Shown here piece after piece: positions 5,394 through 60,645 of a DNA stretch of 64,000 nt. This DNA comes from an uncultured Bacteroidaceae bacterium (lineage in GTDB: Bacteria; Bacteroidota; Bacteroidia; Bacteroidales; Bacteroidaceae). The notes beneath the pieces were generated by a model that saw only the letters and a list, made by a program, of their open reading frames with translations, ran no database searches and was not told the DNA's origin. Position numbers and translations under genes: made by a program. How positions within the stretch are numbered: position 1 is the stretch's first letter; each line of letters begins with the position of its first letter. The stretch spans positions 6,192 to 70,191 of the forward strand of contig CALUIR010000006.1 of NCBI GenBank assembly GCA_944320785.1. The letters run 5' to 3'.

Positions 5394-5849
5394 ATGGAAA
5401 TTATATTGAAAGAAGACATTGCTAACTTGGGTTACAAGAACGACATTGTGAATGTGAAGTCCGGTTATGGCCGCAATTTCCTGATTCCGACAGGGAAGGC
5501 TGTCATCGCTTCCCCGTCTGCCAAGAAAATGCTGGCGGAAGAGTTGAAACAACGCGCCCACAAATTGGAGAAAATCAAGAAAGATGCCGAAGAATTGGCA
5601 GAGAAACTGAAAGGCGTGAAACTGACGATTGCGACGAAGGTCAGCTCGACAGGCACGATTTTCGGTTCTGTGGGGAACATCCAGCTTGCAGAAGAATTGG
5701 AAAAGTTGGGCTATAAGGTGGATCGTAAGATTATCTACATCAAGGATGCCGTGAAAGAAGTCGGTTCTTATGTGGCAACGGTCAAGTTGCATAAGGAAGT
5801 GGCTGTGGAGTTGCCTTTTGAAGTAATTGCTGAAGAAACGAATCAGTAA
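5394..5849 (+). CDS. rplI: 50S ribosomal protein L9 (bL9)
   Basis: MEIILKEDIANLGYKNDIVNVKSGYGRNFLIP. GGAGG at 5382-5386 lies 7 nt upstream of the ATG. Confidence 0.95.
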   Translation: MEIILKEDIANLGYKNDIVNVKSGYGRNFLIPTGKAVIASPSAKKMLAEELKQRAHKLEKIKKDAEELAEKLKGVKLTIATKVSSTGTIFGSVGNIQLAEELEKLGYKVDRKIIYIKDAVKEVGSYVATVKLHKEVAVELPFEVIAEETNQ

Positions 5850-41690: not shown

Positions 41691-44000
41691 ATGAAGAACT
41701 ATTTATTTTTATTGGCATTCCTTTTTGTGAGTGCAACTGTTTTTGCCGTTCCTCAAGGAGATGGCAGTGTTGATAATCCTTATTTACTAACGGATGCTTC
41801 AGAACTGAATGAAATCCGTAATCATCCCGATGCGCATTACCGTTTGATGAACGACATCGATTTGGGAGACTGGCTTGCAGAAAACTCTCCCGAAGAAGGT
41901 TGGGAACCCATCAATGGTTTCACAGGTTCTTTGGACGGCAACGGTTTTGCCGTTTCAGGTTTCTGGATCAACCGTCCTTCCACCGACAAGGTGGGTTTGT
42001 TCGGCAGCATCTCTGGCGGCACAATCAAGCGTTTGGGCTTGTTGATGGCAGACGGGAAAGGCGTTGTCGGCAATAACAACGTCGGTGCTTTTGTGGGGCA
42101 CACTCCTTATTCCACATCGGCCATCACCATTGAAGAATGTTTTGTTTCGGGCGGCACGGTGGAAGCCAAAGGTTCTGCGGCAGGCGGCATTTTGGGATAC
42201 ACTTCCACGAACAGTGTGGTTCTCAACATTGTGAATTGTTATGTGGCTGGCACGATGGTGATTGGCGCGGATGGCGCAGGTGGCATTGTCGGCACGGCTT
42301 ACCGCAGCATTAATGTGGAGAACTGTTACAGCACAGGTCTTGTGAAGTCCGCGAACAATGATAAGTCGGCAGGCGGCATTGTCGGAGGGACGAATGACCA
42401 GAGTGATGCATATACAGTGAAGAATTGCATTGCTTTGAATTCGGAAATTCAATCTTCAAAATCGGCAGGCCGCATTGTGGGTTGGATAAAGAGTGCTGAT
42501 AAGACGGTACTTTCTAATAATTATGCTTTTGCTGGAACATTGGTGGATGGTTCAATGATATCAGGCGAATTGACAGACAGCAATGGCTTGAACAAGAGCA
42601 AGGAAGAAGTGAATGAACAGGCGACCTATGAATCTTTGGGTTGGAGTTTTGGTGAAGAAGGCGTATGGACGATGGGCAACGGCGAGTATGCTTTGCCGGT
42701 ATTGAAAAATGTCTCTATAGAAAAACAACCGATTGTAATGCCGGAACATTTGGAGATTGAAAAGGAATTGGGAAGTGTTGATAACCCTTATTTAGTGACA
42801 ACTGCTTCTGAATTGAATGACATTCGCAATAATCCCGCTGCGCATTACCGTTTGATGAATGATATTGATTTGACAGATTGGCTTGCAGAAAATTCTTCGG
42901 AGGAAGGCTGGGAACCGATTAATGATTTTACAGGATCTTTGGATGGCAATGGTTTTACCATTTCGGGCTTCTGGATCAACCGTCCTTCCACAGACAAAGT
43001 GGGTCTGTTCGGTAGTATTTCAGGTGGTACCATTAAACGTTTGGGCTTGTTAATCCCAGACGGGAAAAGCATTGTGGGAAACAACTATGTGGGCGGCATT
43101 GTCGGCCATACGCCTTATACGACATCGGCTATATCTATTGAAGAATGTTTTGTTTTTGGTGGAACGATTGAAGCGAAGGCTACTGCTGTTGGTGCCATAT
43201 TGGCTTATACTTCGACAAATAGTGTGACGGTGAACATTCGTAATTGTTATGTGGCAGGCACTACGGTGATTGGCGCAGATGGTGCAGGCGGCGTGACGGG
43301 TACTGCTTATCGGAGCATAAACATAGAGAATTGTTATAGTACCGGCATTGTGAAATCAACGAATGATGATAAATCGGCTGGAGGAATTATTGGTGGTGTG
43401 AATGATCAAGGAAAAGAATATATAGTAAAGAACTGCATTGCCTTGAATTCTGATATTCAATCATCAAAATCGGCAGGACGTATCGTTGGTTGGGTGAAAA
43501 CAGCAGATAAAACCACGCTTTCCAACAATTATGCTTTTGACGGAATATTGGTGGATGGTGTAACGGTGTCAGGTGTTGATACAGATAATAATGGCTTGGG
43601 CAAGAGCAGGGAAGAAGTGAGTGACCAGGCTACTTATGAATCCTTGGGTTGGGATTTCAGTGAGGAAGGTGTTTGGACGATGGGCAACGGCGAGTATGCT
43701 TTGCCGGTGTTGAAGAATTTTTCCATGGATAAACAACCCATTGCGATGCCAGAACACTTGAAAGGACCTTCTGTGCAAATTGGGGAGAAGGAATCGCCAG
43801 CTTTGCTTGTATATCCTACCGTGACGAATGGCATGGTGTTTATTGACAACAAGGCTGCTTCTTCGATGGTGTTTGTGTATGATTTGTCCGGGAATATGGT
43901 GATGCAGTCTGATGCATCGGCTTTGAATTTGTATCCTTTGTCTGATGGCATTTATTTGATAAAGGTAGAAGGCACAGTTGTTAAAGTACAAAAAGATTAG
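41691..44000 (+). CDS. Secreted protein made of two tandem GLUG-like modules plus T9SS sorting domain
   Basis: Signal peptide. Module 1 at aa 23-352 and module 2 at aa 359-688 are in register with a 336-aa offset. C-terminal VFVYDLSGNMV...GIYLIKVEGTVVKVQKD. Confidence 0.78.
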   Translation: MKNYLFLLAFLFVSATVFAVPQGDGSVDNPYLLTDASELNEIRNHPDAHYRLMNDIDLGDWLAENSPEEGWEPINGFTGSLDGNGFAVSGFWINRPSTDKVGLFGSISGGTIKRLGLLMADGKGVVGNNNVGAFVGHTPYSTSAITIEECFVSGGTVEAKGSAAGGILGYTSTNSVVLNIVNCYVAGTMVIGADGAGGIVGTAYRSINVENCYSTGLVKSANNDKSAGGIVGGTNDQSDAYTVKNCIALNSEIQSSKSAGRIVGWIKSADKTVLSNNYAFAGTLVDGSMISGELTDSNGLNKSKEEVNEQATYESLGWSFGEEGVWTMGNGEYALPVLKNVSIEKQPIVMPEHLEIEKELGSVDNPYLVTTASELNDIRNNPAAHYRLMNDIDLTDWLAENSSEEGWEPINDFTGSLDGNGFTISGFWINRPSTDKVGLFGSISGGTIKRLGLLIPDGKSIVGNNYVGGIVGHTPYTTSAISIEECFVFGGTIEAKATAVGAILAYTSTNSVTVNIRNCYVAGTTVIGADGAGGVTGTAYRSINIENCYSTGIVKSTNDDKSAGGIIGGVNDQGKEYIVKNCIALNSDIQSSKSAGRIVGWVKTADKTTLSNNYAFDGILVDGVTVSGVDTDNNGLGKSREEVSDQATYESLGWDFSEEGVWTMGNGEYALPVLKNFSMDKQPIAMPEHLKGPSVQIGEKESPALLVYPTVTNGMVFIDNKAASSMVFVYDLSGNMVMQSDASALNLYPLSDGIYLIKVEGTVVKVQKD
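41757..42746 (+). repeat. GLUG-like module coding repeat R1 (~0.99 kb)
   Basis: Aligns to R2 at a +1008 nt offset. Aligns to R3 at +3890 nt, dropping to +3887 after a 3-nt indel. 41861-42010 is identical to 45751-45900. Confidence 0.9.
42765..43754 (+). repeat. GLUG-like module coding repeat R2 (tandem copy in the same gene, more diverged)
   Basis: Same amino-acid register as R1, with many synonymous and conservative differences. Confidence 0.85.
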
Positions 44001-44012
44001 TTTGGGTTGTTT

Positions 44013-44052
44013 GTAAATGGGCGTGTCGGAATAGGCATGCCCATTTACCTTT
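44013..44052 (+). terminator. Possible intra-PUL terminator or attenuator
   Basis: 10-bp perfect stem GTAAATGGGC (44013-44022) / GCCCATTTAC (44039-44048), followed by CTTTT. Confidence 0.4.
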
Positions 44053-44068
44053 TAAACAGGATTTTATT

Positions 44069-46876
44069 ATGAGAGCAAAAATATTGATATCATTTTTAGC
44101 ATGTATTGCAACTTTGAATCTGAATGCGAGAGGTGCTGTTGTAGAAAACGGCGTAGCACTAGATGCGGATAACAATCAGGCTGTATTGACCAAGCTGGAT
44201 GTTGCTACGCAGATGAAAAAAGTCAATGACTATTATATGGCACGGCATCAAAGCCCAGGAAACAGTTGGGTCACTTCTGCTTATTTTGTAGGTTGCATGA
44301 AGTTTTATAATCTTTACCCAGAACAGCGGGTGTTGGACTACATGAATGGTTGGGCTGAAAATCATGAATGGAGTTTAGGAACTAATGCGGACAAACATGG
44401 GGCAGACGGGCAGGTTTGCGGACAGACTTATATTGACCTTTATGTGTTGGACGGGAAACGGGATGACCATAAAATCAATGCAATAAAAACATGCATTGAT
44501 GACTTGGTGGCCAATCCTTCTGAGTCGATAGATGATTGGTGGTGGGCGGATTCCTATTTTATGGCCATGCCTATTTTTGCCAAGCTGGGTGCTTTGTATG
44601 ATGATGATGCTTATTTCAAGCAGATGCATGATATGCAGGAATATTCCATGAATCGTTGGAAATTGTATAATGAAACAGACCATTTTTGGCATCGTGACAG
44701 TACCCAAGTATTTGGAAAAGCAGAAAGCCCCAATGGAAAGCCGGTTTATTGGTCGAGGGCAAATGGATGGGCCATTGCAGCATTTGCATTGGCGATGGAT
44801 TGTTTGCCGGACGACAGTCCTTATCGTGCGAAATATGTCCGATTATTGCAAGAAATGGCAGAGTCATTGCGTAATGTGCAACGTGAAGATGGGTTTTGGA
44901 ATAGGAACTTGGGTGACGACCAACATCTTCCGGGACCGGAAACCAGTGGCACGGCATTGTTTGCCTATGGCATAGCATGGGGGATTAATCATGGGATATT
45001 GGATGAAAATATTTATCGCCCGGTTGTGGAGAAAGCGTGGAATGGCTTGGTGGATATTGCAGTTCGGGAAGATGGTTTGTTAGGTTATGTCCAAGGACCG
45101 GGTTTCAAGCCTGAATCGAATTATCCATTGGATGAAAACACTTCTTATGACTATGGGGTTGGTGCTTTTTTGTTAGCAGGGAGTGAGGTGATTGAAATAG
45201 CAGAAGGAGATATGCCTGCGTTAGGTGATTTGCCAGATCGATTCGATGAGGAAGAAATCAATATGGAGGTGACTGCCAGTGCATCGGAAAATTCATCTCG
45301 GACTCCGGATAAAACATTGGACCGTGATTTCTCAACTCGTTGGTCTGCCGAAGGAGAACAATGGATTAAATACGATTTGTTGGAATCTGAAATAGTGAGT
45401 GCTGTGGAATTGGCTTTTTGGGATGGGCATAAAAGGAAGTTTTATTTTTCGATAGAATTGTCTGAAGATGATGAGAACTGGCAGGAAGCATTTGATGGCG
45501 AATCGAGCGGGACGGTGGATAATGATTGGGAGAAGTTTCCCATAACACCTTGTAAGGCGCGCTATGTGAGAATCAATGGACATGGCAATAGCAGCAACCG
45601 TTGGAATAGCATTTTGGAGACAAGGATTCATGCTGAGAAAATTCCTCCTTTAGGCAGTGCAGAAAATCCTTATTTAGTGACGGATGCTTCAGGGCTGAAT
45701 GAAATCCGCAATAATCCCAATGCGCATTACCGTTTGATGAATGACATCGATTTGGGAGACTGGCTTGCAGAAAACTCTCCCGAAGAAGGTTGGGAACCCA
45801 TCAATGGTTTCACAGGTTCTTTGGACGGCAACGGTTTTGCCGTTTCAGGTTTCTGGATCAACCGTCCTTCCACCGACAAGGTGGGTTTGTTCGGCAGCAT
45901 ATCCGGCGGCACCATCAAGTGTTTGGGCTTGTTGATAGCAGAAGGTAAAGGGGTTGTCGGTAATAATTACGTTGGTGCTTTTGTGGGGCATACGCCTTAT
46001 TCTACATCGGCCATTACCATTGAAGAATGCTTTGTTTCGGGCGGCACGGTGGAAGCCAAAGGTTCTGCGGCAGGCGGCATTTTGGGATATACATCCACGA
46101 ACAGCGTGGCTTTCAACATTGTGAACTGTTATTCAGGCACGACGGTAATTGGTGCGGATGGGGCAGGCGGCATTGTCGGCACGGCCTATCGTAGCATTGA
46201 TGTGGAGAACTGTTACAGTACAGGTATCGTGAAATCAGCGAACAATAATAAGTCAGCGGGCGGTATTGTCGGCGGAACAAATGCTTTGAGCGATTCTTAT
46301 GTGATACAGAATTGTATTGCATTAAATTCAGAAATTCAGTCTGCGAAGTCAGCAGGCCGTATTGTGGGTTGGATGAAAAGCGAGGAAAAAGCAAAACTTT
46401 CTAATAATTATGCATTTGCCGGAATGTTGGTGGACGGTGCAACGTTGTCAGGCACGGCAACAGACAACAATGGCCTGGACAAGGCCAAAGAAGAAGTGAA
46501 TGAACAGGCAACCTATGAATCTTTGGGCTGGGCTTTTGACGACGAAGGCATTTGGGTGATGGGCAATGGCGAGTATGCTTTGCCGGTATTGAAGAATGTT
46601 TCTATGGGGAAACAGCCGATTGTGATGCCGGAACATTTAAAGATGGATGATTCTTCTATTTTAGGTCTAAAAAAGCCTTTGTTTGTTTATCCGACTGTGA
46701 CAGATGGTGAAATATTCATTTATAATAAGCCGTTGCATTCAATGGTATTTGTGTATAACTTGTCGGGATGTTTGGTCTTGCAATCCGAGGCATCGGTCTT
46801 GAACCTTTCTTTTTTGCCTAAAGGCGTTTATTTGATAAAGGCCAATGATGAGATGGCAAAAGTGCAGAAACTGTAA
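44069..46876 (+). CDS. Four-module secreted protein: GH105/GH88-type unsaturated uronyl hydrolase + discoidin domain + GLUG-like module + T9SS sorting domain
   Basis: Glyco_hydro_88 fold motifs (DDWWWADSYFMAMP, YWSRANGWAIAAFA, ETSGTALFAYGIAWG, GLLGYVQGPG). Discoidin-like DRDFSTRWSAEGEQWIKYDL. GLUG-like module at nt 45647-46633. C-terminal VFVYNLSGCLV...GVYLIKANDEMAKVQKL. Confidence 0.8.
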   Translation: MRAKILISFLACIATLNLNARGAVVENGVALDADNNQAVLTKLDVATQMKKVNDYYMARHQSPGNSWVTSAYFVGCMKFYNLYPEQRVLDYMNGWAENHEWSLGTNADKHGADGQVCGQTYIDLYVLDGKRDDHKINAIKTCIDDLVANPSESIDDWWWADSYFMAMPIFAKLGALYDDDAYFKQMHDMQEYSMNRWKLYNETDHFWHRDSTQVFGKAESPNGKPVYWSRANGWAIAAFALAMDCLPDDSPYRAKYVRLLQEMAESLRNVQREDGFWNRNLGDDQHLPGPETSGTALFAYGIAWGINHGILDENIYRPVVEKAWNGLVDIAVREDGLLGYVQGPGFKPESNYPLDENTSYDYGVGAFLLAGSEVIEIAEGDMPALGDLPDRFDEEEINMEVTASASENSSRTPDKTLDRDFSTRWSAEGEQWIKYDLLESEIVSAVELAFWDGHKRKFYFSIELSEDDENWQEAFDGESSGTVDNDWEKFPITPCKARYVRINGHGNSSNRWNSILETRIHAEKIPPLGSAENPYLVTDASGLNEIRNNPNAHYRLMNDIDLGDWLAENSPEEGWEPINGFTGSLDGNGFAVSGFWINRPSTDKVGLFGSISGGTIKCLGLLIAEGKGVVGNNYVGAFVGHTPYSTSAITIEECFVSGGTVEAKGSAAGGILGYTSTNSVAFNIVNCYSGTTVIGADGAGGIVGTAYRSIDVENCYSTGIVKSANNNKSAGGIVGGTNALSDSYVIQNCIALNSEIQSAKSAGRIVGWMKSEEKAKLSNNYAFAGMLVDGATLSGTATDNNGLDKAKEEVNEQATYESLGWAFDDEGIWVMGNGEYALPVLKNVSMGKQPIVMPEHLKMDDSSILGLKKPLFVYPTVTDGEIFIYNKPLHSMVFVYNLSGCLVLQSEASVLNLSFLPKGVYLIKANDEMAKVQKL
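45647..46633 (+). repeat. GLUG-like module coding repeat R3 (near-identical to R1)
   Basis: See R1. It contains the 150-nt perfect identity block at 45751-45900. Confidence 0.9.
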
Positions 46877-50720: not shown

Positions 50721-52091
50721 ATGAATAAAATTTCATGTCCCGCATGCGGGTTCGCTTTGATGCTTCTCTTTTTCATGTTTTCTTGCAGCGGCCGTCGGCA
50801 ACACGACGTGGAGGAACTCTTTGCGCGTGCCGCCCGTTGGGAGGAAGCAGGACGTTTGGACTCCGCGTTGGTGGCGTACCAAAACGCTCTCCGAGAGTTG
50901 GAGAACACGGATGATGATGCGAAGAGAGGGGAAGCTCATTTGGCAATAGGAGGCATCTTGGTTAAATCGTTTTGGGACAGGGAAGCCTTTTCGGAATTTG
51001 CCAAAGCATATCAATGTAGCAAGGATTTGGAGGATAAAAGTATAGCTTCCAAAGCGTTGGTTTTTATGGGAAACTATCATACCTTTTATGGCAAAAAAGG
51101 TAAGATGGAAAGCACCAAACAGCATGGGGCGGACATGATTAATCGCACTCTGCGTTTCTTGCCACAGGTGGACAAAGAGACACGTGCAATCATTTACCAC
51201 AATGTGGCTTACGTGCATTATGAGAATGAGGATTACCGTCGGGCATGGATTTATGCGGCGATGTCGGATTTTTGCACTGAGGATAGCGCATTGTTGCATC
51301 GCAATGAATATACAAGGTGTTTGATATATCTTAAAACGGGCAGGAACCGTCAAGCGATAGAATCTTGCCAAGCCATGTTAACTTATCCGGATCCTTATCT
51401 GCAAGCATCGGCATGTACCGTCTTGATTCGGGCTTTTGGCCAATTAGACGACCGTGAACAAAGCCGGAATTATTCCCAACGGTTGGACAGCCTTATTTCG
51501 GGGCTTTCTTATAACAAGGAGGAGATTTTGGCAATATGGCAGCAAGGAACAGAGCCGGAAGGCATTCCTTTCCGCTATTGGGTGAAAGATTTGTGGGTGT
51601 TTTTAGTTGGGGGGATTGCTTTGTTGATATTCTATTTTGTGGCGAAGCGCAAGGCTGGATCGCAAGGCCAGCCATCTGGATTTTCTGATTTTCCACAGGA
51701 AAACTTGGATAAAGAAAATCTTGTCGCGCAGTTTTATGCCACAGAAATTGGCCGTAAAGTTCTGCAAATAAAAGAAGATGATGAAGCGGCAAAGCGGGGA
51801 GAGGCATTGAATAATAGTTTGTGCAACGGGGATTTGGATTTGTTGTCGCAAACTTTGCAGCAGTCCTTTCCCGTTTGTTGCCAAAAGTTGCTTCGCATTT
51901 ATCCGGACATTGTTCCCAAGGACTTGTCTTATTGCTGCCTGTCAGGGTTGCTGGGGTTAAGTTCCCGTTGTTGTGCGGCTTGCCTCGGTTTGTCATCCGA
52001 CAGCATCCGCACCAATAAAATGCGTATTAAAAAGAAGCTGTGCGTTACCCCCGGAGGCAAAGAACTTTTTGAGCAAATGTTCCCTTCATGA
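50721..52091 (+). CDS. One-component transmembrane regulator: signal peptide/lipobox + TPR-like ectodomain + single TM + C-terminal LuxR-type HTH
   Basis: N-terminal LMLLFFMFSCSG. Helical repeat region at aa 30-285. TM helix LWVFLVGGIALLIFYFVA followed by KRK (nt 51591-51644). C-terminal DLSYCCLSGLLGLSSRCCAACLGLSSDSIRTNKMRIKKKL matches the LuxR/GerE HTH pattern (nt 51918-52040). Confidence 0.65.
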   Translation: MNKISCPACGFALMLLFFMFSCSGRRQHDVEELFARAARWEEAGRLDSALVAYQNALRELENTDDDAKRGEAHLAIGGILVKSFWDREAFSEFAKAYQCSKDLEDKSIASKALVFMGNYHTFYGKKGKMESTKQHGADMINRTLRFLPQVDKETRAIIYHNVAYVHYENEDYRRAWIYAAMSDFCTEDSALLHRNEYTRCLIYLKTGRNRQAIESCQAMLTYPDPYLQASACTVLIRAFGQLDDREQSRNYSQRLDSLISGLSYNKEEILAIWQQGTEPEGIPFRYWVKDLWVFLVGGIALLIFYFVAKRKAGSQGQPSGFSDFPQENLDKENLVAQFYATEIGRKVLQIKEDDEAAKRGEALNNSLCNGDLDLLSQTLQQSFPVCCQKLLRIYPDIVPKDLSYCCLSGLLGLSSRCCAACLGLSSDSIRTNKMRIKKKLCVTPGGKELFEQMFPS

Positions 52092-52130
52092 TGGAGGTAG
52101 GAACAATCTATGCTTGTTAAAAATAGCAAA

Positions 52131-52202
52131 TGCTACGCTTAAACCGCGTTTTGCTACGCTTTTTGGTGGATTTGCTACGCTTTTGATGTACAAATGCTAC
52201 GC
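52131..52202 (+). promoter_or_regulatory. Four phased direct repeats of TGCTACGC (candidate operator array) upstream of the precursor gene
   Basis: Copies at 52131-52138, 52152-52159, 52173-52180 and 52195-52202, spaced 21, 21 and 22 bp. The first three extend to TGCTACGCTT. Confidence 0.6.
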
Positions 52203-52204
52203 GA

Positions 52205-52240
52205 TAAATTTGTTTTTGATTTGTTGAGCCTGTACTTTTG
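52205..52240 (+). promoter_or_regulatory. Two candidate -7 boxes for the RiPP operon
   Basis: TAAATTTG at 52205-52212, directly abutting the last repeat, and TACTTTTG at 52233-52240. Either would give a 5' leader of about 190-220 nt before the ATG at 52428. Confidence 0.35.
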
Positions 52241-52427
52241 ACTTCAGATTTTTATGCATGCATTCAAATTGTTTTGGGTTTTGGCAACAAGGCAGCCTCG
52301 TGTGTTTGTTCGGTTTGGCGGGCAGTCATTGAAACTGGATTGCAAGTATGGGCGATTGGCTTCTGCCCAGCCTTGTATGGGTTGTCAAAGTGTGGATAAA
52401 AGGAGTCATGATTTAAAAGGTTTAAAT

Positions 52428-52670
52428 ATGAATAAGGTTTTCATAAAAGAAAATCGCCTTCTCGCTTTGAAAGACGAAGAAGTATTGCAAGAATTTGAAA
52501 TGGTGGAATTGAAAGGTGGAAGTTCAATCAGTCCATTAGGGGATAATTATGGTTGCAATACTAGTGTTTGTGGATGCAATGTGAAAGATTGCAAGGATGA
52601 ATCAGATGTGTCGGATAAGTGTTACGAACCAGTAGAACCCAACTCTATGTATATCTGTTGGCCGAAGTGA
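52428..52670 (+). CDS. RiPP precursor peptide (80 aa): double-glycine leader + 49-aa six-Cys acidic core
   Basis: MNKVFIKENRLLALKDEEVLQEFEMVELKGG / SSISPLGDNYGCNTSVCGCNVKDCKDESDVSDKCYEPVEPNSMYICWPK. The leader fits the double-glycine consensus (hydrophobic at -4, -7 and -12; Glu at -8). It lies immediately upstream of the rSAM maturase and the C39 exporter. The start is at the internal Met of ORF 52254-52670. Confidence 0.7.
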   Translation: MNKVFIKENRLLALKDEEVLQEFEMVELKGGSSISPLGDNYGCNTSVCGCNVKDCKDESDVSDKCYEPVEPNSMYICWPK

Positions 52671-52678
52671 TGTTTTTA

Positions 52679-52701
52679 GGGTACGCCTATTGGGCGTACC
52701 C
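52679..52701 (+). terminator. Intercistronic hairpin (possible partial terminator or RNA-stability element) between precursor and maturase
   Basis: Perfect 9-bp GC-rich stem GGGTACGCC (52679-52687) / GGCGTACCC (52693-52701) with a 5-nt loop. It starts 9 nt after the precursor stop codon. There is no strong T-run. Confidence 0.5.
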
Positions 52702-52734
52702 GCTTATTCTCCTAAATATTTAAATCTGAATACC

Positions 52735-54045
52735 ATGAAAACAAGCCGATATAACTATGTCATTCACGACAACGGGCAGTTGCTTTGCTTCAACGCCTTG
52801 TCGAGGGCGTATTTCTACATGCGCCCGGAGATGGAGCATTATTTGGACGAAGTGCTGGCTCGCCCGGATGACTACAAGGAAAAGCTGCCATCGTTCTACC
52901 AAAAGCTGTCGCAAGGATGGTTCATCGTGGACGAGACGGTGGACGAACTGGAGGTCATCCGCAAGCTGCACCGCGAGGCGTGCGATGCGAAGGATTACAA
53001 CCTCACCATCCTCCCCACCTTGGGCTGCAACTTCCGCTGCTGGTATTGCTACGAAGAACATGCGCAGGCCCGGCCGATGAGCGACGAAGTGGTGGGGCGC
53101 GTCCGCAAGTGCATTGCCCGGATTGTGGAGGAGAAAGATACACGCTCTCTGAACTTGACGTGGTTTGGCGGGGAGCCGTTCTTGCTTTTCCAAAAAATCA
53201 TCGCCCCGCTGAACACGTATGCCAAGGCGCTTTGCCGGGACAGGGGCATCCGCTTCTCCTCGTCGGCCACGACCAATGGGTATTTAATCAACGAAACTGT
53301 GGCGCGGCAGTTGGCGGAACTGTGCATCAACCATTTCCAAATCACCTTGGACGGCGACCGCACGCACCACGACCGCACGCGGGTGGCCAAGGAGGGGTCG
53401 TCGTTTGACACCATCCTGCATAACGTGAACCTCATCTGCCGGGAAAATTCGGAGGCGGAAGTGCTGCTCCGCTTCAACTATGAGGCCGGCAACTTCCTGC
53501 CGGAGCAAATCGCCCGGCAAGTGGCGGAGCGCGTTGGGAAGACCCATCGGAAGCGAATCCGCTTCATCTTCCGCAAGGTGTGGCAAGCCGAGGAAGTGCC
53601 GGACGTGAGGGCGAAGGTGCAGGAACTGATTCGCCTGCTGAAAGCGGAAGGCTTTGATTATGCCTACGGGTATGAGTTGGTGACAGATTATACTTCCTGC
53701 TATGCAGCCCGCAAGCACTCTATTGTCATCACGCCGGACGGCTTGGTGGGCAAATGCACGGCGAGGACTGATTTTGCGCAATATGCGGCGGGGCGGTTAG
53801 GCGAAGACGGGCGCATCGTGTGGAAAGAGGCAGGCGCATCGCTGAACGACATTTATGCCACGCCGCTGTTTGAGAACGAGATGTGCCTGTCGTGCAAGAA
53901 GCTGCCCCTGTGCATCGGGATGTGTCCCAAAATCATCAGCCCGGAGGGCAAGATACCTCCTTTGGATTATGCCTGCCCGCACAAGGACAAGCAGTTTGAT
54001 TGGGGCGACCTGATAGCGGGTTATTGCCGGATGCGGGATGCCTGA
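52735..54045 (+). CDS. Radical SAM peptide maturase with C-terminal SPASM domain
   Basis: CNFRCWYC (CX3CX2C, nt 53026-53049) and GGEPFL. Full SPASM signature: C337-X13-G-X4-C356, C399-X2-C-X5-C-X3-C412 and C429 (numbering from ORF 52690; nt 53698-53976). Start at the ATG at 52735 (MKTSRYNYV). Confidence 0.88.
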   Translation: MKTSRYNYVIHDNGQLLCFNALSRAYFYMRPEMEHYLDEVLARPDDYKEKLPSFYQKLSQGWFIVDETVDELEVIRKLHREACDAKDYNLTILPTLGCNFRCWYCYEEHAQARPMSDEVVGRVRKCIARIVEEKDTRSLNLTWFGGEPFLLFQKIIAPLNTYAKALCRDRGIRFSSSATTNGYLINETVARQLAELCINHFQITLDGDRTHHDRTRVAKEGSSFDTILHNVNLICRENSEAEVLLRFNYEAGNFLPEQIARQVAERVGKTHRKRIRFIFRKVWQAEEVPDVRAKVQELIRLLKAEGFDYAYGYELVTDYTSCYAARKHSIVITPDGLVGKCTARTDFAQYAAGRLGEDGRIVWKEAGASLNDIYATPLFENEMCLSCKKLPLCIGMCPKIISPEGKIPPLDYACPHKDKQFDWGDLIAGYCRMRDA

Positions 54046-54111: not shown

Positions 54112-56430
54112 ATGAGAGGGAAACGTTTTTGGGTAGCGGCGCTGGCAGGATGCTTGGCGGCGGCTGCGCATGCCTACAAGCTGGAAGGCACGTTGCAAGA
54201 TGCGGCGCAACGCCCCGTGGAGTATGCCAACGTGCAACTGTTGGGCAGGGACTCATCGTTCGTGGCAGGCACGGTGTCCGACCGTCGGGGCGCATTCATG
54301 GTGGAAGCCGACGGGGGCGACTACTTGCTGCGCGTGTCGATGGTGGGCTATGCCACGGTGACAAGGGAGGTGAGGAATGTGGCCGGTGATGTGCGGCTTG
54401 GCACGATTGTGCTGGAAGAAGCGACCAATGAGTTGGACAGCATTACGGTGACGGCTCACCGCATCATTCGCCGCATCGACCGGCAGATTGCGTTTCCCGG
54501 CAAACTGGAAACGGAAAGTTCTGCCACGGCCTTGGAACTGCTGAAGAAAATGTCGCTTCCTTTGCTGAAAGTGGACGACGTGAACCGCAGCGTGAGCATG
54601 GTGACGGGGGGCAGCGTGCAGCTACGCATCAACGGGCGTCCCGCCACGGTGGAAGAAGCCGCCCGCATCCCTTCGAAAGATATTATCCGCATTGAGTATC
54701 ACGATAACCCCGGCGTGCGGATACAGGAAGAAGCCTTGGTGGACTTCATTGTGCGCCGACGGGAAGCCGGAGGGCAAGTAGTGGTCAACACGCGGAATGC
54801 CGTTCACTTGTGGTTCAGCGATGATGATGTGACTTTCAAGGTGAACCACGGGCGTTCGGAATGGTCGGGCAACTACACGTTTTCTTACCGCGACTATGAC
54901 GATGCTTGGAATGAGGCGACCTTGGACTATACAACGCCGGAAGGAGAGTTCAGCCAGAAGTTAGATGGCATTCCTTCGCCTTTCTATTATCAGACGCATA
55001 ACATTGATTTGTCTTACAACTACACGAAGCCGGACAAGCGGATGCTGAACGTGCTTTACAGGGGGACTTACCATCGGAACAATTCATTGGACCGCGCTAA
55101 TGTGATGTATTCCGAATACCCGGAATGGAATTATACGTATGAAGACCGTGACAAAGATCCGTACAGCGTTTCTGCGTTGGACCTTTTCTATAAAGAGGAA
55201 ATCGACAAGACCCAGCGTGTGTATGCCGACCTGTGGGGAAGCTACACGGACACGAAATATGACCGGGAATACATTTACCGCAGCATGGCGCAACCCGATG
55301 CGGGCGGCAGCTATGTGAACCACACGAAGGGGAAGAAATACAGCCTGATAGCCGAGGCGGATTATGAAAAGGAGTGGGACAAGGTGAAGCTCTATGCGGG
55401 CGGGAAGTACAGTTGGGGACATGCTGACAACCGCTACCGAGGAACAACCGTGGCCAACACGGAGATGACCAATTCCGACCTTTATCTCTACTCCCAACTG
55501 ACGGGACGCTACAAGAAGCTGTCGTACCAAGTAGGCGTGGGCGTGTCGTATGCTTATTTTGACGAAGGGGGGGAGGGGTACAAGTTTTGGACGTTCCGTC
55601 CTTCTGCCTCCTTGAACTACCAGCAGACGGAGACGGGCGGATGGATGTTCCGCTACGATTTCCGAAGTTTGCCGAGCATTCCTTCGCTTTCCAGCCTCAG
55701 TGATGTGGAGCAAGACGTGGATCCATTGGTGGTCAGCCGGGGAACACCGGGCTTGAAACCGTACCGTTATTATGCAAATGCGATGATGGCGGGCTATGTG
55801 CATCCGAAAGTGACAGTCTATTGGGGCGGTGAGCATTATTATTATGACAATGTAATTATGACAAGCATGTGGTGGGACGATGCGCGGGGCAAGTTTGTTT
55901 CCGCGCCTGAAAACCAGAAACATTATCAGACAGCGAGGGCTTTTGCCGGCCTGCAATGGCAGGTGGTGAAAGATGTGTTCAACCTCTCGTTCTATGGGAT
56001 GGCAGGCTGGATGGAGAGCAAGGGGAACAATTTCCGCCATACTTATACGAGCCTTTACGGACGGGTCTCGGCTGATTTTTATTGGAAAGGATGGAACTTG
56101 GGCGTAAGTGCGCACAACCGCTTCCACAGCCTTTGGGGAGAAAGCCTGAGTTATGGGGAATGGCCGGGCTATGGTTTCTCTGGTGGTTACCGCTACAAAG
56201 ACTGGTACTTCGGCCTTTATGCCTGGGGGCCGTTCACAGATGCGGCAAGTTATTATAGCGAGTCCCTTCGGGAAGTGTATCGGAGAAAGTCGTGGCGCTA
56301 CATCGGGCAGTCATCCCCCATTTACATGTTGCAAGTCAACTGGAACTTCAATTGGGGCAGGAAGTCGCAAGCCGGGAAGAAAACGATTAACAACAGCGAT
56401 TCCGACACCGGCATTTTGAAGGCCAATTAA
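54112..56430 (+). CDS. Outer-membrane beta-barrel protein with CarboxypepD_reg-like N-domain (TonB-dependent-receptor-like, OMP_b-brl_3 type)
   Basis: Signal peptide (AAAAHA). YKLEGTLQDAAQRPVEYANVQLLGRDSSFVAGTVSDRRGAF. A plug-like segment, then about 550 aa of Y/W/G-rich strand repeats. Its stop codon lies 1 nt before the exporter ATG. Confidence 0.75.
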   Translation: MRGKRFWVAALAGCLAAAAHAYKLEGTLQDAAQRPVEYANVQLLGRDSSFVAGTVSDRRGAFMVEADGGDYLLRVSMVGYATVTREVRNVAGDVRLGTIVLEEATNELDSITVTAHRIIRRIDRQIAFPGKLETESSATALELLKKMSLPLLKVDDVNRSVSMVTGGSVQLRINGRPATVEEAARIPSKDIIRIEYHDNPGVRIQEEALVDFIVRRREAGGQVVVNTRNAVHLWFSDDDVTFKVNHGRSEWSGNYTFSYRDYDDAWNEATLDYTTPEGEFSQKLDGIPSPFYYQTHNIDLSYNYTKPDKRMLNVLYRGTYHRNNSLDRANVMYSEYPEWNYTYEDRDKDPYSVSALDLFYKEEIDKTQRVYADLWGSYTDTKYDREYIYRSMAQPDAGGSYVNHTKGKKYSLIAEADYEKEWDKVKLYAGGKYSWGHADNRYRGTTVANTEMTNSDLYLYSQLTGRYKKLSYQVGVGVSYAYFDEGGEGYKFWTFRPSASLNYQQTETGGWMFRYDFRSLPSIPSLSSLSDVEQDVDPLVVSRGTPGLKPYRYYANAMMAGYVHPKVTVYWGGEHYYYDNVIMTSMWWDDARGKFVSAPENQKHYQTARAFAGLQWQVVKDVFNLSFYGMAGWMESKGNNFRHTYTSLYGRVSADFYWKGWNLGVSAHNRFHSLWGESLSYGEWPGYGFSGGYRYKDWYFGLYAWGPFTDAASYYSESLREVYRRKSWRYIGQSSPIYMLQVNWNFNWGRKSQAGKKTINNSDSDTGILKAN

Positions 56431-56431
56431 T

Positions 56432-58645
56432 ATGCGGGCGCGGAAGTTCCCATATTGTCATCAACTGGATGCCATGGATTGCGGCGGGGCATGCCTTCGC
56501 ATGGTAGCAGCTTGCTACGGGCGCAACTTCTCCGGCCAGGAAGTGCAACGGCTCTGTGCGGCGGGGCGCGAGGGCGTTTCGGTGCTTTCCGTGTGTGAAG
56601 CGGCAGAGGCGATGGGCTTCCGCGCCGTGGCAGGCCGGGTGTCGTTGGAGAAGCTGACGGCGCAACAGCCCTTTCCCTGCATCTTGCATTGGCGGCAGGA
56701 ACATTTTGTGGTACTTTACGCCGTGAAGCGGAAGCATCGGGGCGACCGCTGGTTTTGCGTGGCCGATCCGGGGAAAGGACTACAGGCATTGGATGAAGAA
56801 ACTTTCAGGGAACATTGGCTGAGTACGCGTCGGCAGGGTGAAGAACGCGGCATTGTGGTGTCGCTCCAGCCTGCGGCAGCTTTCTTTGAGAAGCATCCTG
56901 CCTGTGGAAAGAAGGTGCCTGCGGCGGCTTTCCTGTACAGGTATATGCGGCCATACGGGAAGTTTTTCCTGCATCTGGCGGCAGGGCTGCTGTTGGGGAG
57001 CGTGTTGCAACTGATTGCTCCTTTCCTGACGCAGGCCATTGTGGACACCGGCATTGCCAACCGTGACATCGGTTTTATCTATTTGGTGCTGGCCGGGCAA
57101 TTGATGCTGGTGCTGAGCAGCACGGCCATCGACTTTGTGCGGCGGTGGATATTGCTCCACATCAGCGTGCGCGTCAACCTGTCGCTGCTGTCTGACTTCA
57201 TCATCAAATTGATGAAGCTGCCCATGGGCTTCTTTGAGGAGAAGCAAACCGGCGACCTGATGCAGCGGATGAACGACCACGAACGGGTGCAGCAGTTCCT
57301 TACCACGCAAACGCTCGGCATCCTGTATTCGCTTTTCAGCTTCGTGGTGTTCGGCGTGGTGTTGCTGTATTATGACGTTTGGATTTTTGCCGTGTTTGCC
57401 TTGGGCAGCCTGCTTTATGCCGGATGGATTGGCCTGTTCCTGCGGCGGAGGCGGACGATTGATTATGAATATTTCGAGCAAAGGGCCTTGAACCAAAGCA
57501 AGACGATGCAACTGTTGGGCGGCATGCAGGAGACAAAGCTGCAAGGATGCGAAAGCCGCCGCCGGTGGGAATGGGAAGACGTGCAGGCGGGACTGTTTCA
57601 AGTGAACATGAAATCGCTGAAACTGTCGCAAGCCCAAGAGGTGGGCGGCGTTTTCATCAACCAAGCCAAAAGCATTGTCATCACCATCATGGCGGCAACG
57701 GCCGTGGTGGACGGGCGTTTGTCGTTGGGCATGATGCTGGCCATTCAATATATCTTAGGGCAGTTGTCCTACCCGGTGGAGCAATTGCTGGCTTTCATCT
57801 ACCATTGGCAGGACGTGAAAATCAGCTTGGAGCGCATGGCGGAAATCCATGTGCAGGAAGATGAAAATGAAGGGAGGCGCATGGATTCGCCTGTCCCGAG
57901 CAGCCCTGCTGCCATAGATGTGGCAGATGTGAGCTTCCAGTATGAAGGAAAACATTCACCGAAGGTGCTGGACCATGTGACGCTGCACCTGCCGCAGGGG
58001 AAGGTGACGGCCATTGTGGGCGGAAGCGGCAGCGGGAAAACTACTTTGGTGAAATTGTTGTTGGGCTATTATGTTCCCACGGACGGGGACATCCGGGTGG
58101 GCGGGGCGGCGTTGGCCGGGATGGACAAAAAGAAATGGCGGCGGCAATGCGGCGTGGTGATGCAGGACGGCTACATTTTTTCGGAGTCCATCGCCCGCAA
58201 CATTGCGGTGGGCGACGGGGAGATAGATTCTCAAAGATTGAAGGAAGCCGCCCGTTTGGCCTGTGTGGATGAATTTGCAGAACGCTTGCCGTTGCGATAT
58301 GACACGGTGGTGGGAATGGACGGGCGGGGCATCAGCCAAGGGCAGCGGCAGCGCATCCTGATAGCCCGCGCGGTATATAAAGATCCGCCTTTCCTGTTTT
58401 TCGATGAAGCGACCAACTCATTGGACACTGTGAACGAGCGGGTTATCATGGAAAACCTGGATGGATTTTATAAAGGGAAAACCGTAGTGGTAGTGGCGCA
58501 TCGGTTGAGTACGGTGCGCCATGCGGACCAGATTGTGGTGCTGGACAAAGGACGGGTGGTGGAAACAGGTACGCATGAGGAACTGGCTGCCCGCAGGGGG
58601 GCTTATTTTGAATTGGTGAAGAACCAGCTTGAACTGGGAGAATAG
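56432..58645 (+). CDS. Bacteriocin-type ABC exporter with N-terminal C39 cysteine peptidase domain
   Basis: C39 motif QLDAMDCGGACLRMV (catalytic Cys17, nt 56480-56482). Six-TM domain. Walker A GGSGSGKTT, signature ISQGQRQR, Walker B FLFFDEATNSLD. Confidence 0.92.
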   Translation: MRARKFPYCHQLDAMDCGGACLRMVAACYGRNFSGQEVQRLCAAGREGVSVLSVCEAAEAMGFRAVAGRVSLEKLTAQQPFPCILHWRQEHFVVLYAVKRKHRGDRWFCVADPGKGLQALDEETFREHWLSTRRQGEERGIVVSLQPAAAFFEKHPACGKKVPAAAFLYRYMRPYGKFFLHLAAGLLLGSVLQLIAPFLTQAIVDTGIANRDIGFIYLVLAGQLMLVLSSTAIDFVRRWILLHISVRVNLSLLSDFIIKLMKLPMGFFEEKQTGDLMQRMNDHERVQQFLTTQTLGILYSLFSFVVFGVVLLYYDVWIFAVFALGSLLYAGWIGLFLRRRRTIDYEYFEQRALNQSKTMQLLGGMQETKLQGCESRRRWEWEDVQAGLFQVNMKSLKLSQAQEVGGVFINQAKSIVITIMAATAVVDGRLSLGMMLAIQYILGQLSYPVEQLLAFIYHWQDVKISLERMAEIHVQEDENEGRRMDSPVPSSPAAIDVADVSFQYEGKHSPKVLDHVTLHLPQGKVTAIVGGSGSGKTTLVKLLLGYYVPTDGDIRVGGAALAGMDKKKWRRQCGVVMQDGYIFSESIARNIAVGDGEIDSQRLKEAARLACVDEFAERLPLRYDTVVGMDGRGISQGQRQRILIARAVYKDPPFLFFDEATNSLDTVNERVIMENLDGFYKGKTVVVVAHRLSTVRHADQIVVLDKGRVVETGTHEELAARRGAYFELVKNQLELGE

Positions 58646-58878: not shown

Positions 58879-60645
58879 CTATCTTACCACCACTTTGGCG
58901 GAGACATCGCCCATTTGCACGATGTAAAGCCCTTTGGGCAAGCGGATGATGTGTTGTTCGCCCGGCGTGAGGCTTGCCCGCCGGCAGAGGATGCCGTTGG
59001 CAGCATAGATGCGTGCTTGCCCGCCGGTTTCGGCATGGATGGCGATGCCTTGCGGCAAGGCATTAATCGAAATTGCCTCATGAGACGTGATGGATGTGGG
59101 GTCGCCGCCCATGAAATCGAAGGAAATGATGCCGTTGCTTTCCGTGATGTTGGTGACCGGCGTGGCAATGTCGTCGCCCTCATAGACTTCAAAAGACGTG
59201 ATTTCTGTGATGTTGCGGATGCCCGGATAGGGGTCGCCTTGCCGGCTTGACAGGGAGATGTTGCCCAGTTCGCCATCGGCGGGCAGGATGGTCATGCCTT
59301 GTTGGCTGCTGTTGTTGACTGTGTTATAGGCCCATTCCTGTTCATCGTAGTTGACATGCATCACCAACATGCCGTGCCCCAACAGGGCAGAATCCCAGCT
59401 TTCCTGTTGCCTGTTTTCCAACAGGAAATATTCATCGGGGTTGCTTTCGTTGATGATTTTGAAAGCCTGCCCTTCCGGCGTGTGTGCGGCAGCTAAGCGG
59501 ACGGTGCAAGGCTGGGTTAATGCTTCCGTGCTTTTCCAGCCCATGAACTCCTTTTCATAGGCCGTGTAGCCGCATGGCGTGTGGGAGTTGTCGTTGTAGG
59601 AACCATAGTCCATGACATCCCATGTGTCCATGCCGAAATAAGATCGGTTGTTGGTGGGGTAGAAATCGGGAAGCCCCAAGCAATGGCTGAATTCATGGCA
59701 GAAAGTGCCGATGCCATCAATCTCATTGCCATACAGTTCATTGTTGCAGGCATAGCTGTAAAGGAGTACGCCATCGAGTTCCGGCAATTCATCCATGGCG
59801 GAACGGAAATCCCATTGGTGCGGCCAAATGCTGTTTTCTTCTTCGCTGGATGCTTCGCCCACGCCTGCATAGATGGTGTAGAGTACATCCACAATGCCAT
59901 CGCCATCGTTGTCATAGACCGAGAAGTCGGGTATCAACCCTTCGGCTTTCGCGAGGGTGCAGGCTTCCAGAACCATTTCGGCGGGGCGGATGTCATCGCC
60001 TTTCCAATCGTTGGCACCGTAATAGGCCCGGTTGTTTTCCAATGTGACGGGCCCGATGATGTCGAACTGCGGGTCGAACAAGCCGCCGGACTGTGCAAGG
60101 AAATAGTCGCGGACGCTGCCATAGTCCCGTCCTCCGGTGTAACCTTCCTGGCTGACCCGTTGCGTGTATCCTGCATGAACCAGTTCGCCTTCGCTGAAGG
60201 CCACGTCCTGGTATTGGATGAGGATGACGGGAATCCGGGGATTTCCTTGCGGGCGTATCTGGGAAACCTTCATGGGTGCCGCTTTCGCTTGTTGTTTGTT
60301 CCGGCGGATTTGCGGCATGTAATTGGCGATGATCGGCTTATTTGTTTCCACAAATTCGGCTTCTTCTGCTGTACGGTTGGGGACGGCATGTGCCAATTGT
60401 GTGGAGGCGGCCAATGTGCCTTGCCCGGTAATTACGGAATAATAGAAGTGGCCGTCTGTCCCTTTGGTAAGGATGATGCCATCGTCCGTGGTGTAATAAT
60501 GGCAATGTTCATCGCCTTGCTTGACCACCGTGAGGACTGTTCCGTCTTTTTGCACATGGTTGATGCGCAGTTGTTTGGCAGGCACTGCCTGTAATACGGA
60601 AAAGGCCATCCATAGGCAAATGGTGGCGGATAGGATTCGTTTCAT
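58879..60645 (-). CDS. M6-family (immune inhibitor A-like) zinc metalloprotease with T9SS sorting domain
   Basis: Signal peptide. HEFSHCLGLPDFY (HExxH...LGLPD.Y, M6 signature). C-terminal ARIYAANGIL...GLYIVQMGDVSAKVVVR tail. Confidence 0.75.
   Translation of the reverse strand: MKRILSATICLWMAFSVLQAVPAKQLRINHVQKDGTVLTVVKQGDEHCHYYTTDDGIILTKGTDGHFYYSVITGQGTLAASTQLAHAVPNRTAEEAEFVETNKPIIANYMPQIRRNKQQAKAAPMKVSQIRPQGNPRIPVILIQYQDVAFSEGELVHAGYTQRVSQEGYTGGRDYGSVRDYFLAQSGGLFDPQFDIIGPVTLENNRAYYGANDWKGDDIRPAEMVLEACTLAKAEGLIPDFSVYDNDGDGIVDVLYTIYAGVGEASSEEENSIWPHQWDFRSAMDELPELDGVLLYSYACNNELYGNEIDGIGTFCHEFSHCLGLPDFYPTNNRSYFGMDTWDVMDYGSYNDNSHTPCGYTAYEKEFMGWKSTEALTQPCTVRLAAAHTPEGQAFKIINESNPDEYFLLENRQQESWDSALLGHGMLVMHVNYDEQEWAYNTVNNSSQQGMTILPADGELGNISLSSRQGDPYPGIRNITEITSFEVYEGDDIATPVTNITESNGIISFDFMGGDPTSITSHEAISINALPQGIAIHAETGGQARIYAANGILCRRASLTPGEQHIIRLPKGLYIVQMGDVSAKVVVR

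Follow-up and report, generated by a model that had tools for sequence, protein, structure and literature searches.

A cysteine-rich double-glycine precursor peptide, its putative radical SAM/SPASM maturase, and a strain-variable core cassette in an uncultured Bacteroidaceae bacterium

We analyzed a 64,000-nucleotide stretch of DNA from an uncultured Bacteroidaceae bacterium (GenBank assembly GCA_944320785.1, contig CALUIR010000006.1, positions 6,192 to 70,191 of the forward strand; hereafter, the window), in which a small gene at 52428-52670 on the forward strand encodes an 80-residue precursor peptide made up of a 31-residue leader, MNKVFIKENRLLALKDEEVLQEFEMVELKGG, and a 49-residue core, SSISPLGDNYGCNTSVCGCNVKDCKDESDVSDKCYEPVEPNSMYICWPK. 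This translation reproduces exactly the one given in the initial annotation of the window, which had read the gene as a double-glycine precursor with an acidic, Cys-rich core. As read from the sequence, the precursor gene heads an operon in which it is followed, in order, by a hairpin, a radical S-adenosylmethionine (SAM)/SPASM enzyme, a TonB-dependent-type outer-membrane protein, and an ATP-binding cassette (ABC) exporter with a C39 peptidase domain; a putative regulator gene lies upstream. The peptide is of an ordinary bacterial kind, and neither it nor the enzyme fits any curated family.

The program-made list of open reading frames (ORFs) has a sole entry at this position, a 138-residue ORF at 52254-52670, as the initial annotation stated when it proposed that the internal 80-residue frame is the real gene. 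An alignment of four close relatives across the whole region, together with remoter loci, sides with the shorter frame. A TAG codon lies inside the 58-codon N-terminal extension of the 138-residue ORF in the relative L010, and the extension evolves nearly neutrally (dN/dS of 0.63 against L009), whereas the 80-residue frame gives a dN/dS of 0.11 to 0.12 against two relatives; the core alone gives 0.04 to 0.07, which points to strong purifying selection within the class of cores to which the window belongs (class A; see below). At remoter syntenic loci, L001 and L003 among them, the upstream DNA is unrelated to that of the window, the ORF starts at the homologous Met, and the leaders are 31 to 32 residues long. 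Gene callers picked the 80-residue form in L010, L093, and L105. A/T-rich bases precede the ATG at 52428, whereas G+C-rich bases precede an in-frame alternative, the ATG at 52377. Because the TAG in L010, the dN/dS contrast, the homologous Met starts, and the upstream base composition agree, the 80-residue gene is well supported, and the sequence comparison places the start of translation at ATG 52428. The 138-residue ORF was rejected on the strength of the TAG, the near-neutral extension, and the unrelated DNA upstream of the gene in core classes B and C, and the 97-residue form that would begin at ATG 52377 was rejected together with it.

The leader occupies 52428-52520, with cleavage predicted after Gly31, and the core plus the stop codon occupies 52521-52670. 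The pattern of a double-glycine leader (hydrophobic residues at -4, -7, and -12, an acidic residue near -8, and Gly-Gly at -2/-1) is present in the form of L28, M25, L20, E24, and G30-G31, just as noted earlier, and the assignment is further borne out by the ABC transporter of the operon, whose C39 domain can be aligned to double-glycine proteases through all three motifs (Cys, His, and Asp). The core, which is the presumed radical SAM substrate region, contains six Cys, five Asp, three Glu, and four Lys, with a net charge of -4 and a calculated pI of 4.24. Two statements about it needed revision: the unmodified core has a computed mass of 5382 Da rather than roughly 5.2 kDa, and its negative charge, described as atypical, is normal for the substrate class, since 55% of 74 cores encoded beside homologous maturases are net negative (22% are neutral and 23% positive).

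Conservation is concentrated in the leader. A block of 21 residues, LLALxDEEVLxEFEMVELKGG, is found in seven protein clusters, and a profile search of 1.84 billion representatives recovered ~21 small proteins that carry it, all with Cys-rich tails; a scan of GTDB genomes with the leader profile gave one locus, L003. Across 24 family members, F23, E24, E27, L28, G30, and G31 are invariant. The cores of the family vary widely, with the common elements [GS]-[DTN]-N-aromatic-x-C-x-N-x-x-C, a later DKC-x-PP, and a C-terminal aromatic-x-C. The initial annotation had expected the leader and the Cys spacing of the core to be conserved at orthologous loci and had taken the absence of a conserved small ORF there to speak against the gene; such an ORF is in fact present at this position, and the expectation stands for the leader and in part for the core, where the conserved Cys positions are those of NYxC-xNxxC, DKCxPP, and the C-terminal aromatic-x-Cys. 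In these alignments, the leader is much more conserved than either the enzyme or the core; the locus L004, for example, matches the window at 16 of the 21 leader-block residues, yet its maturase is 45% identical. Searches with the precursor peptide returned no Pfam or NCBIfam match above threshold and no match to the SCIFF (six cysteines in forty-five residues) model TIGR03973; the sole NCBIfam hit, even at E ≤ 10, was TIGR04149 (12.8 bits against a cut-off of 25; E 0.083), confined to the leader region. A three-residue cyclophane at the C-terminal W-P-K was considered and then dropped, because the Trp is replaced by Arg in a sub-variant of the core, A′.

The gene at 52735-54045 (forward strand) encodes a protein of 436 residues that Pfam and NCBIfam matches and a structural model identify as a putative radical SAM/SPASM maturase with an N-terminal domain resembling a RiPP recognition element (RRE; RiPP, a peptide made on the ribosome and modified after translation). 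PF04055 matches the protein (9e-13), and its CX3CX2C motif, C98-NFR-C102-WY-C105, is invariant in 36 homologues, among which the Cys residues of the seven-Cys SPASM motif (C322-X13-G336-X4-C341; C384-X2-C387-X5-C393-X3-C397; C414) are also invariant or nearly so. The SPASM model TIGR04085 (40.3 bits against a cut-off of 27) is the sole NCBIfam model that the protein passes; its best-matching families, namely TIGR04463, Clo7bot, and CefB, followed by PapB and CcpM, are all maturases of Cys-rich peptides. The closest solved structure is that of the thioether synthase CteB, both by sequence (E 7e-12) and as the best fold neighbor in the PDB (E 3e-16 over about 420 columns, N-terminal domain included). 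In the AlphaFold model (predicted local distance difference test, pLDDT, 91.8), residues 7 to 84 form three strands followed by helices at a pLDDT of 95 to 98, and with the CteB alignment reaching the N-terminus, the modeled domain looks like one of the leader-recognizing (RRE) kind.

A G+C-rich hairpin with a 10 bp stem, recognized from the sequence and from relatives, lies between the precursor and maturase genes (52679-52701, forward strand), and L001, L003, and L010 share this stem. The precursor-to-maturase spacers of 43 of 49 unrelated loci fold at z < -2 (median -4.2) although their sequences are unrelated, and the hairpin of the window is probably an attenuator or an RNA-stabilizing element. 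Downstream of the maturase, the gene at 54112-56430 (forward strand) encodes a TonB-dependent-transporter-like outer-membrane protein of 772 residues, for which Pfam matches and the structural model suggest a CarboxypepD_reg extension, a TonB-box-like SITVTA (consensus VTVTAS) within a disordered linker at residues 105 to 115, a plug, and a β-barrel. PF13620 and PF13715 match this protein. Its AlphaFold model (pLDDT 83.9) aligns in Foldseek with Cir, OprC, BtuB, and PfeA (E 5e-18 to 1e-15 over about 710-750 columns), as would be expected of a TonB-dependent-transporter fold that carries a CarboxypepD_reg extension. The last gene of the operon, at 56432-58645 (forward strand), encodes a peptidase-containing ABC transporter of 737 residues with C39, transmembrane, and ATPase domains (Peptidase_C39, ABC_membrane, and ABC_tran). 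The C39 domain (PF03412, 1.2e-24) aligns with LahT150 (6mpz), PCAT1 (4ry2), and ComA, and the alignment with LahT150 and PCAT1 covers the catalytic motifs QxxxxDCG, HFVVL, and DP.

Upstream of the precursor, the gene at 50721-52091 (forward strand) encodes a putative membrane-anchored regulator of 456 residues, so assigned from subthreshold tetratricopeptide repeat (TPR) and helix-turn-helix (HTH) matches and from a topology read off the sequence. The N-terminus has a lipoprotein-type signal with a conserved Cys, and a hydrophobic helix lies near residues 287 to 309; TPR_1 and TPR_2 match with scores short of the Pfam cut-offs, and the C-terminus weakly matches the BT3442 family (NCBIfam, 6e-6) and Sigma70_r4_2 (E 0.1). 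Searching the PDB by sequence with this protein gave nothing useful. It looks like a membrane-anchored one-component regulator with an HTH-like C-terminus, and the predicted topology would place the TPR domain outside the cytoplasm.

Directly after the regulator gene, four direct copies of TGCTACGC start at 52131, 52152, 52173, and 52195 on the forward strand (52131-52202; spacing of 21, 21, and 22 bp). The window as a whole contains six copies against 0.93 expected, a number that 0 of 100 shuffles reached; all four copies of the array are invariant in L009, L010, and L012, and the class-B locus L003 has a related pair, TTTGTCACG, 21 bp apart. These repeats are a candidate operator of the adjacent regulator. 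They interleave with a match to the Bacteroides promoter consensus (-33 TTTG/-7 TAnnTTTG) that consists of TTTG at 52182-52185 and TAAATTTG at 52205-52212, separated by a 19-nt spacer (52182-52212 in all, forward strand); given the positions of these promoter-like elements, the 5′ untranslated region would be roughly 210 nt long. An Rfam scan of 51900-52900 gave no RNA family and one chance-level hit only. The segment 52221-52427, in which the palindrome ATGCATGCAT occupies 52254-52263, keeps 98-99% identity in relatives with a 26% difference in core DNA, and may be a regulatory RNA or simply young flanking DNA.

To see how the locus varies among strains, we surveyed 19 contigs that carry it (18 with the maturase gene, at 91-99% identity) and found three unrelated core classes at a single chromosomal locus. 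Class A, the window type, has a core that opens with SSISPLGDNYGC and contains six Cys, an A-type regulator, and no DUF3244 gene; its sub-variant A′ differs at 13 of the 49 core residues. Class B (core DSPGGDIEGKG...KICGI) and class C (core SFSMELEAGG...PPKFD) have four Cys each and are accompanied by a divergent regulator and a DUF3244 gene, which encodes a small secreted protein and sits between the regulator and the precursor (L003, 7370-7720; L001, 1155-1505; L103, 1416-1754). Neither a DUF3244 gene nor any other immunity-like gene is found at the class A locus of the window. At two unrelated loci, L036 (2244-2630) and L085 (173-553), an ORF of 126-128 residues with an N-terminal hydrophobic segment precedes the precursors; such small ORFs and the DUF3244 protein could be immunity or peptide-binding factors.

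The processing genes do not follow these classes. Maturase identity is independent of core class (one class-B locus is at 99% and one class-A locus at 92%), and the outer-membrane transporter is 96-99% identical across loci with different core classes, whereas regulators of class A loci are 83-100% identical to that of the window and their counterparts in the same position at class B and C loci are 23-30% identical. At the DNA level, the window is 92.6% identical to L003 over 8 kb that start at the hairpin, take in the maturase, transporter, and exporter genes, and extend to the M6 peptidase gene, and 89% identical to L001 over 10 kb of the same hairpin-to-M6-peptidase region; the leader segment is 88-92% identical to L003 and L001, whereas the core and everything upstream have no detectable DNA similarity. 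Within class A, the comparison of the window with L010, which carries A′, gives DNA identities of 99-100% in the upstream flank (regulator gene and intergenic region), 89% in the leader, 74% in the core (dS about 2.4; dN/dS 0.07), 85% in the spacer, 95.5% in the maturase gene (dS 0.16), and 98% in the outer-membrane protein gene, such that dS is near zero in the flanks and about 2.4 in the core. From these comparisons, a divergence peak at the core has the pattern of old alleles that were separated by selection or moved through recombination, with break points in the conserved leader and the hairpin. The core and the adjacent regulator thus appear to be swapped between strains as a cassette, next to processing genes that are nearly identical.

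The maturase family, collected at E ≤ 1e-20, comprises 284 proteins from Bacteroidales and other Bacteroidota. More than 500 metagenome loci contain maturase relatives, and we fetched 80 of these loci, in which the relatives are 28-38% identical; over about 80 Bacteroidota loci taken together, the range is 28-46%. About 60 of the 80 have small ORFs with Gly-Gly leaders and Cys/Asn/Gly-rich sequences immediately upstream of the maturase gene, one to three per locus, with cores rich in Cys, Asn, Gly, Ser, and Thr. These cores share a signature: 156 of 271 Cys residues (58%) are preceded by an Asn at -5 to -3, against 69 ± 7 (26%) in shuffled cores, and 0 of 2000 shuffles reached the observed count. 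The window core on its own has Asn in this interval for four of its six Cys (shuffle mean 1.3; reached by 368 of 20,000 shuffles). Neither Asp/Glu at +4 nor Thr at +3 to +6, both tried as acceptor motifs, is enriched. In the wider family, cores carry four to eight Cys, and the spacing of the Asn is variable (-3 to -5). Among 92 loci with a radical SAM match, the region of the window included, a C39-ABC gene lies within the fetched flank in 52 and a homologue of the outer-membrane protein, on either side, in 24. In place of the TPR regulator, the distant locus L005/L006 (two near-identical contigs) has a histidine kinase and a response regulator in its flank. In L005, a second Gly-Gly leader peptide, which is without Cys, very acidic, and rich in aromatic residues (5555-5701; METGDLLSKEELSAIKGG followed by EWVYDEETDEWYWIEDGRKVPYSFNIHEKY), adjoins the Cys-rich precursor.

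Several described systems resemble this one in part. CteA-CteB of the SCIFF type (thermocellin), PapA-PapB, and freyrasin likewise combine a radical SAM/SPASM maturase, in their case with an N-terminal recognition domain (here RRE-like), with a small, acidic, Cys-rich precursor, and the six Cys in 49 residues of the window core come close to the six in forty-five that give SCIFF peptides their name. The maturase, however, scores 87 against a cut-off of 340 for PapB and 58 against a cut-off of 425 for the SCIFF maturase. A long double-glycine leader, a C39 exporter, an outer-membrane transporter, and an origin in Bacteroidales rather than Firmicutes set the present system apart from SCIFF peptides and ranthipeptides; its cores are not enriched in CX3D, unlike those of the PapB/freyrasin type, and its peptide has no SCIFF match. 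The families TIGR04463 (rSAM_vs_C_rich), TIGR04334 (Clo7bot), and NF038107 (CefB, “Cys-every-fifth”), which were themselves defined bioinformatically, are the best for the maturase and match almost the whole of it (E 1e-49 to 3e-43), but at 148-169 bits against cut-offs of 525-600 the protein is not a member of any of them. The TIGR04149/TIGR04148 system shares the order Bacteroidales, a Gly-Gly leader, a radical SAM maturase, C39 exporters, and nearby TPR genes; yet TIGR04148 is absent from the 25 best families of the maturase, and the peptide is below the TIGR04149 cut-off. An in-silico collection of Bacteroidales RiPP clusters, none of them characterized experimentally, includes some that combine a C39 exporter with an outer-membrane protein and lack a membrane-fusion protein (PMC10352776).

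A likeness in motif is offered by NxxcB of Streptococcus orisratti; this radical SAM/SPASM-type enzyme joins Cys to the β-carbon of the Asn three residues upstream, with the Cys thiol activated on an auxiliary cluster (PMC9389541). As in its substrate NxxcA, Asn precedes Cys here, and the Cys region of the window core opens with N-Y-G-C, an exact NxxC; the two systems are likened by this motif and not by enzyme homology. NxxcA, with its single cross-link and Rgg/SHP regulation, also differs in its leader; the present cores have four to eight Cys with Asn at -3 to -5, and we take NxxcB as a possible lead for the chemistry and as no evidence of membership. For the outer-membrane protein, a comparable case is Oar of Myxococcus xanthus, on which the secretion of PopC depends (PMC6434023). 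Oar has the same order of CarboxypepD_reg, TonB box (here the TonB-box-like SITVTA), plug, and barrel, and on this likeness of domain order it is a precedent for outward transport, although its cargo is a 50-kDa protease and the one proposed here a 5-kDa peptide. Gram-positive pherotype and bacteriocin-cassette loci (comC/comD, agrD/agrC, and pneumococcal blp) combine a conserved leader and conserved processing and export genes with a divergent peptide that is inherited with its sensor or regulator. The locus studied here resembles them in its conserved leader and processing genes, in the divergence peak at the peptide, and in the co-inherited regulator, and it differs from them in having a TPR/HTH one-component candidate instead of a histidine kinase, a Gram-negative envelope, and presumed radical SAM cross-links. 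Our literature searches found no experimental work on the peptide or the enzyme, nor any characterized radical-SAM-modified peptide from Bacteroidales, and searches on TIGR04463 and on TonB-dependent proteins in RiPP clusters returned in-silico surveys only.

Considering these data together, the 80-residue ORF is probably a genuine RiPP precursor gene, and the operon is likely to produce a strain-specific extracellular peptide through leader-guided radical SAM cross-linking, Gly-Gly cleavage, and export. The biosynthetic part of this proposal is strongly supported by gene context and comparison; the reaction type is one that we infer, and it is an extrapolation because the maturase lies far below the cut-off of every named family. 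In the proposed pathway, the N-terminal RRE-like domain of the maturase would bind the conserved leader, and the enzyme would use its SPASM auxiliary clusters to cross-link the core cysteines. The likeliest products would be thioethers to side-chain carbons, as in ranthipeptides, with the Asn three to five residues upstream of a Cys as the best acceptor candidate. The hairpin would keep the precursor mRNA in excess over that of the enzyme. The C39 domain would cut after Gly31, the ABC transporter would move the ~5.4-kDa anionic product across the inner membrane, and the Oar-type TonB-dependent protein would carry the peptide across the outer membrane, in either direction.

Several observations weigh against this scheme. 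The six core Cys could simply form disulfides. The maturase is below the cut-off of every named family, the best score being 168.9 bits against 525 for TIGR04463, and the same holds for the curated cut-offs of the PapB, CcpM, SCIFF maturase, and CXXX-repeat families. The CX3D motif of PapB-type substrates is not enriched among 62 cores (Asp at +4 of Cys in 14 cases against 14.2 expected), and the window core holds one instance, C19-NVK-D23. The Asn-Cys statistic counts related sequences as independent, and Asn is also enriched at +2 of Cys, which makes its pairing with the preceding or the following Cys ambiguous. The outer-membrane protein gave no match to Pfam Plug (PF07715) or TonB_dep_Rec (PF00593) at E ≤ 0.01; some of its homologues match PF14905 or PF00593. 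The promoter and the operator are consensus matches only. Finally, the start codon is ATT rather than ATG in L009 (positions 1295-1297 of the Logan contig, corresponding to 52428-52430 of the window), with the remaining gene intact; L098, another sample with the core of L009, has ATG, and the ATT may reflect a sequencing error or an unusual start, or may mark a pseudogene.

One alternative is that the locus has been misread: its product would be the 138-residue ORF or the 97-residue form from ATG 52377, or else an unmodified, disulfide-bonded class II peptide beside a radical SAM enzyme that acts on another substrate. The long ORF does stay open in the window, L009, L012, and L098, the ATG at 52377 is kept in close relatives, and L009 is without an ATG at the start of the 80-residue frame. 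Against this stand the TAG and the dN/dS of 0.63 in the extension, the unrelated upstream DNA and homologous Met starts of classes B and C, and the base composition ahead of the two ATG codons; another substrate is itself unlikely because Cys-rich Gly-Gly leader ORFs adjoin this enzyme family in most of the ~80 independent loci. We regard a misreading of this kind as very improbable. Only slightly less improbable is a metallophore, that is, a secreted Cys-rich acidic peptide that binds metal and returns through the TonB-dependent transporter in the manner of methanobactin. The six Cys and eight acidic residues of the core would suit such a function, as would a TonB-dependent-type transporter in the operon, with the copper transporter OprC among its top structural matches, and the DUF3244 protein faintly resembles CopC (E 0.22). 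The OprC match is, however, one of generic fold (10-11% identity, beside Cir, BtuB, and PfeA), the operon has no metal-responsive regulator or reductase, and conversion of thiols to thioethers, if made by the radical SAM enzyme, would lower metal affinity. Above all, a ligand-specific importer should co-vary with its ligand, whereas the transporter is 97-99% identical beside unrelated cores that differ in sequence, length, and Cys number (four versus six). Of the roles first suggested for the peptide, metal binding accordingly finds little support in our analysis and signaling some.

Two further roles, each possible but tentative, compete within the preferred scheme of a modified and exported peptide. 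As an autoinducer, the peptide would be a strain-specific, pherotype-like signal: the TonB-dependent protein would admit it to the periplasm, where the TPR domain of the membrane-anchored regulator would sense it, and the regulator would bind TGCTACGC and drive the operon. As a narrow-spectrum bacteriocin, it would act on related Bacteroidales, with the variable cassette as a module of toxin specificity and immunity and the TonB-dependent protein as export route or self-protection. The signal fits the way in which the regulator tracks the core class while maturase and transporter do not, the differences in operator-like repeats among classes, and the histidine kinase and response regulator that stand in at L005/L006; it also fits the predicted topology, since a periplasm-facing sensor would require a route across the outer membrane. 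Yet the regulator directly adjoins the core, such that co-inheritance may be plain linkage, its TPR and HTH assignments are below family cut-offs, and the regulator of L010 is 99% identical to that of the window although the A′ core differs at 13 positions. The bacteriocin draws on the classical export route of such peptides, a Gly-Gly leader with a C39 exporter, which recurs in the Bacteroidales clusters found in silico (PMC10352776). Deep allelic divergence centered on the core (dS of about 2.4 against 0.16 in the maturase) is also what toxin loci under balancing selection display, and the extra DUF3244 gene of classes B and C, like the small ORF ahead of the precursors in L036 and L085, may encode an immunity factor. 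Class A, however, is without a candidate immunity gene, which counts against the bacteriocin and for the signal; its core is under strong purifying rather than positive selection, and, in contrast to membrane-active peptides, it carries a net negative charge and many polar residues. To our knowledge, moreover, no ranthipeptide has demonstrated antimicrobial activity. Because core and regulator are exchanged as a cassette, class A has no immunity-like gene, and ranthipeptides are not known to be antimicrobial, we lean slightly toward an autoinducing signal.

Elsewhere in the window, the exporter gene is followed by a convergent gene on the reverse strand (58879-60645) for an M6 (immune inhibitor A-like) metallopeptidase; synteny holds in L001 and L003, and nothing links the gene to the peptide system. 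The two copies of TGCTACGC outside the array form an inverted pair (44151-44158, reverse strand; 44203-44210, forward strand) inside the start of the ORF at 44069-46876. This ORF and that at 41691-44000 share a module of ~330 residues (GSVDNPYL.T.ASELNEIRN.P.AHYRLMNDIDL...), present twice in the latter and once in the C-terminal part of the former, together with a similar C-terminal tail of ~70 residues, and the large ORFs around 41691-46876 look like glycan-degradation enzymes from their sequences.

Bacteroidales are the dominant Gram-negative order of the gut, and their peptide natural products are known almost solely through genome mining. The noteworthy features of the present locus are the Asn-x(2-4)-Cys signature, an Oar-type transporter within the operon, and the polymorphism of core plus regulator; should the peptide prove an ordinary bacteriocin, the finding would be routine. 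More speculatively, and with less confidence than we give to either role taken singly, the features could combine into polymorphic, pherotype-like signaling in gut Bacteroides, in which a cross-linked peptide is exported by the C39 transporter, crosses the outer membrane through the Oar-type protein, and is sensed in the periplasm by the TPR domain of a membrane-anchored one-component regulator that binds TGCTACGC, with core, promoter, and sensor exchanged as one cassette and the leader and the genes for maturation and export kept constant; the predicted Asn-Cys thioethers would then be of a type not yet described in Gram-negative bacteria. The locus offers a compact four-gene system and a natural experiment, in that three unrelated cores occur beside nearly identical enzymes, which is useful for studying both the chemistry of the maturase and its tolerance of different cores, with the Asn-x(2-4)-Cys signature as a concrete prediction. 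It bears on how a 5-kDa peptide passes the outer membrane of Bacteroides without a membrane-fusion protein or TolC and, finally, on strain-specific peptide signals in gut Bacteroides.

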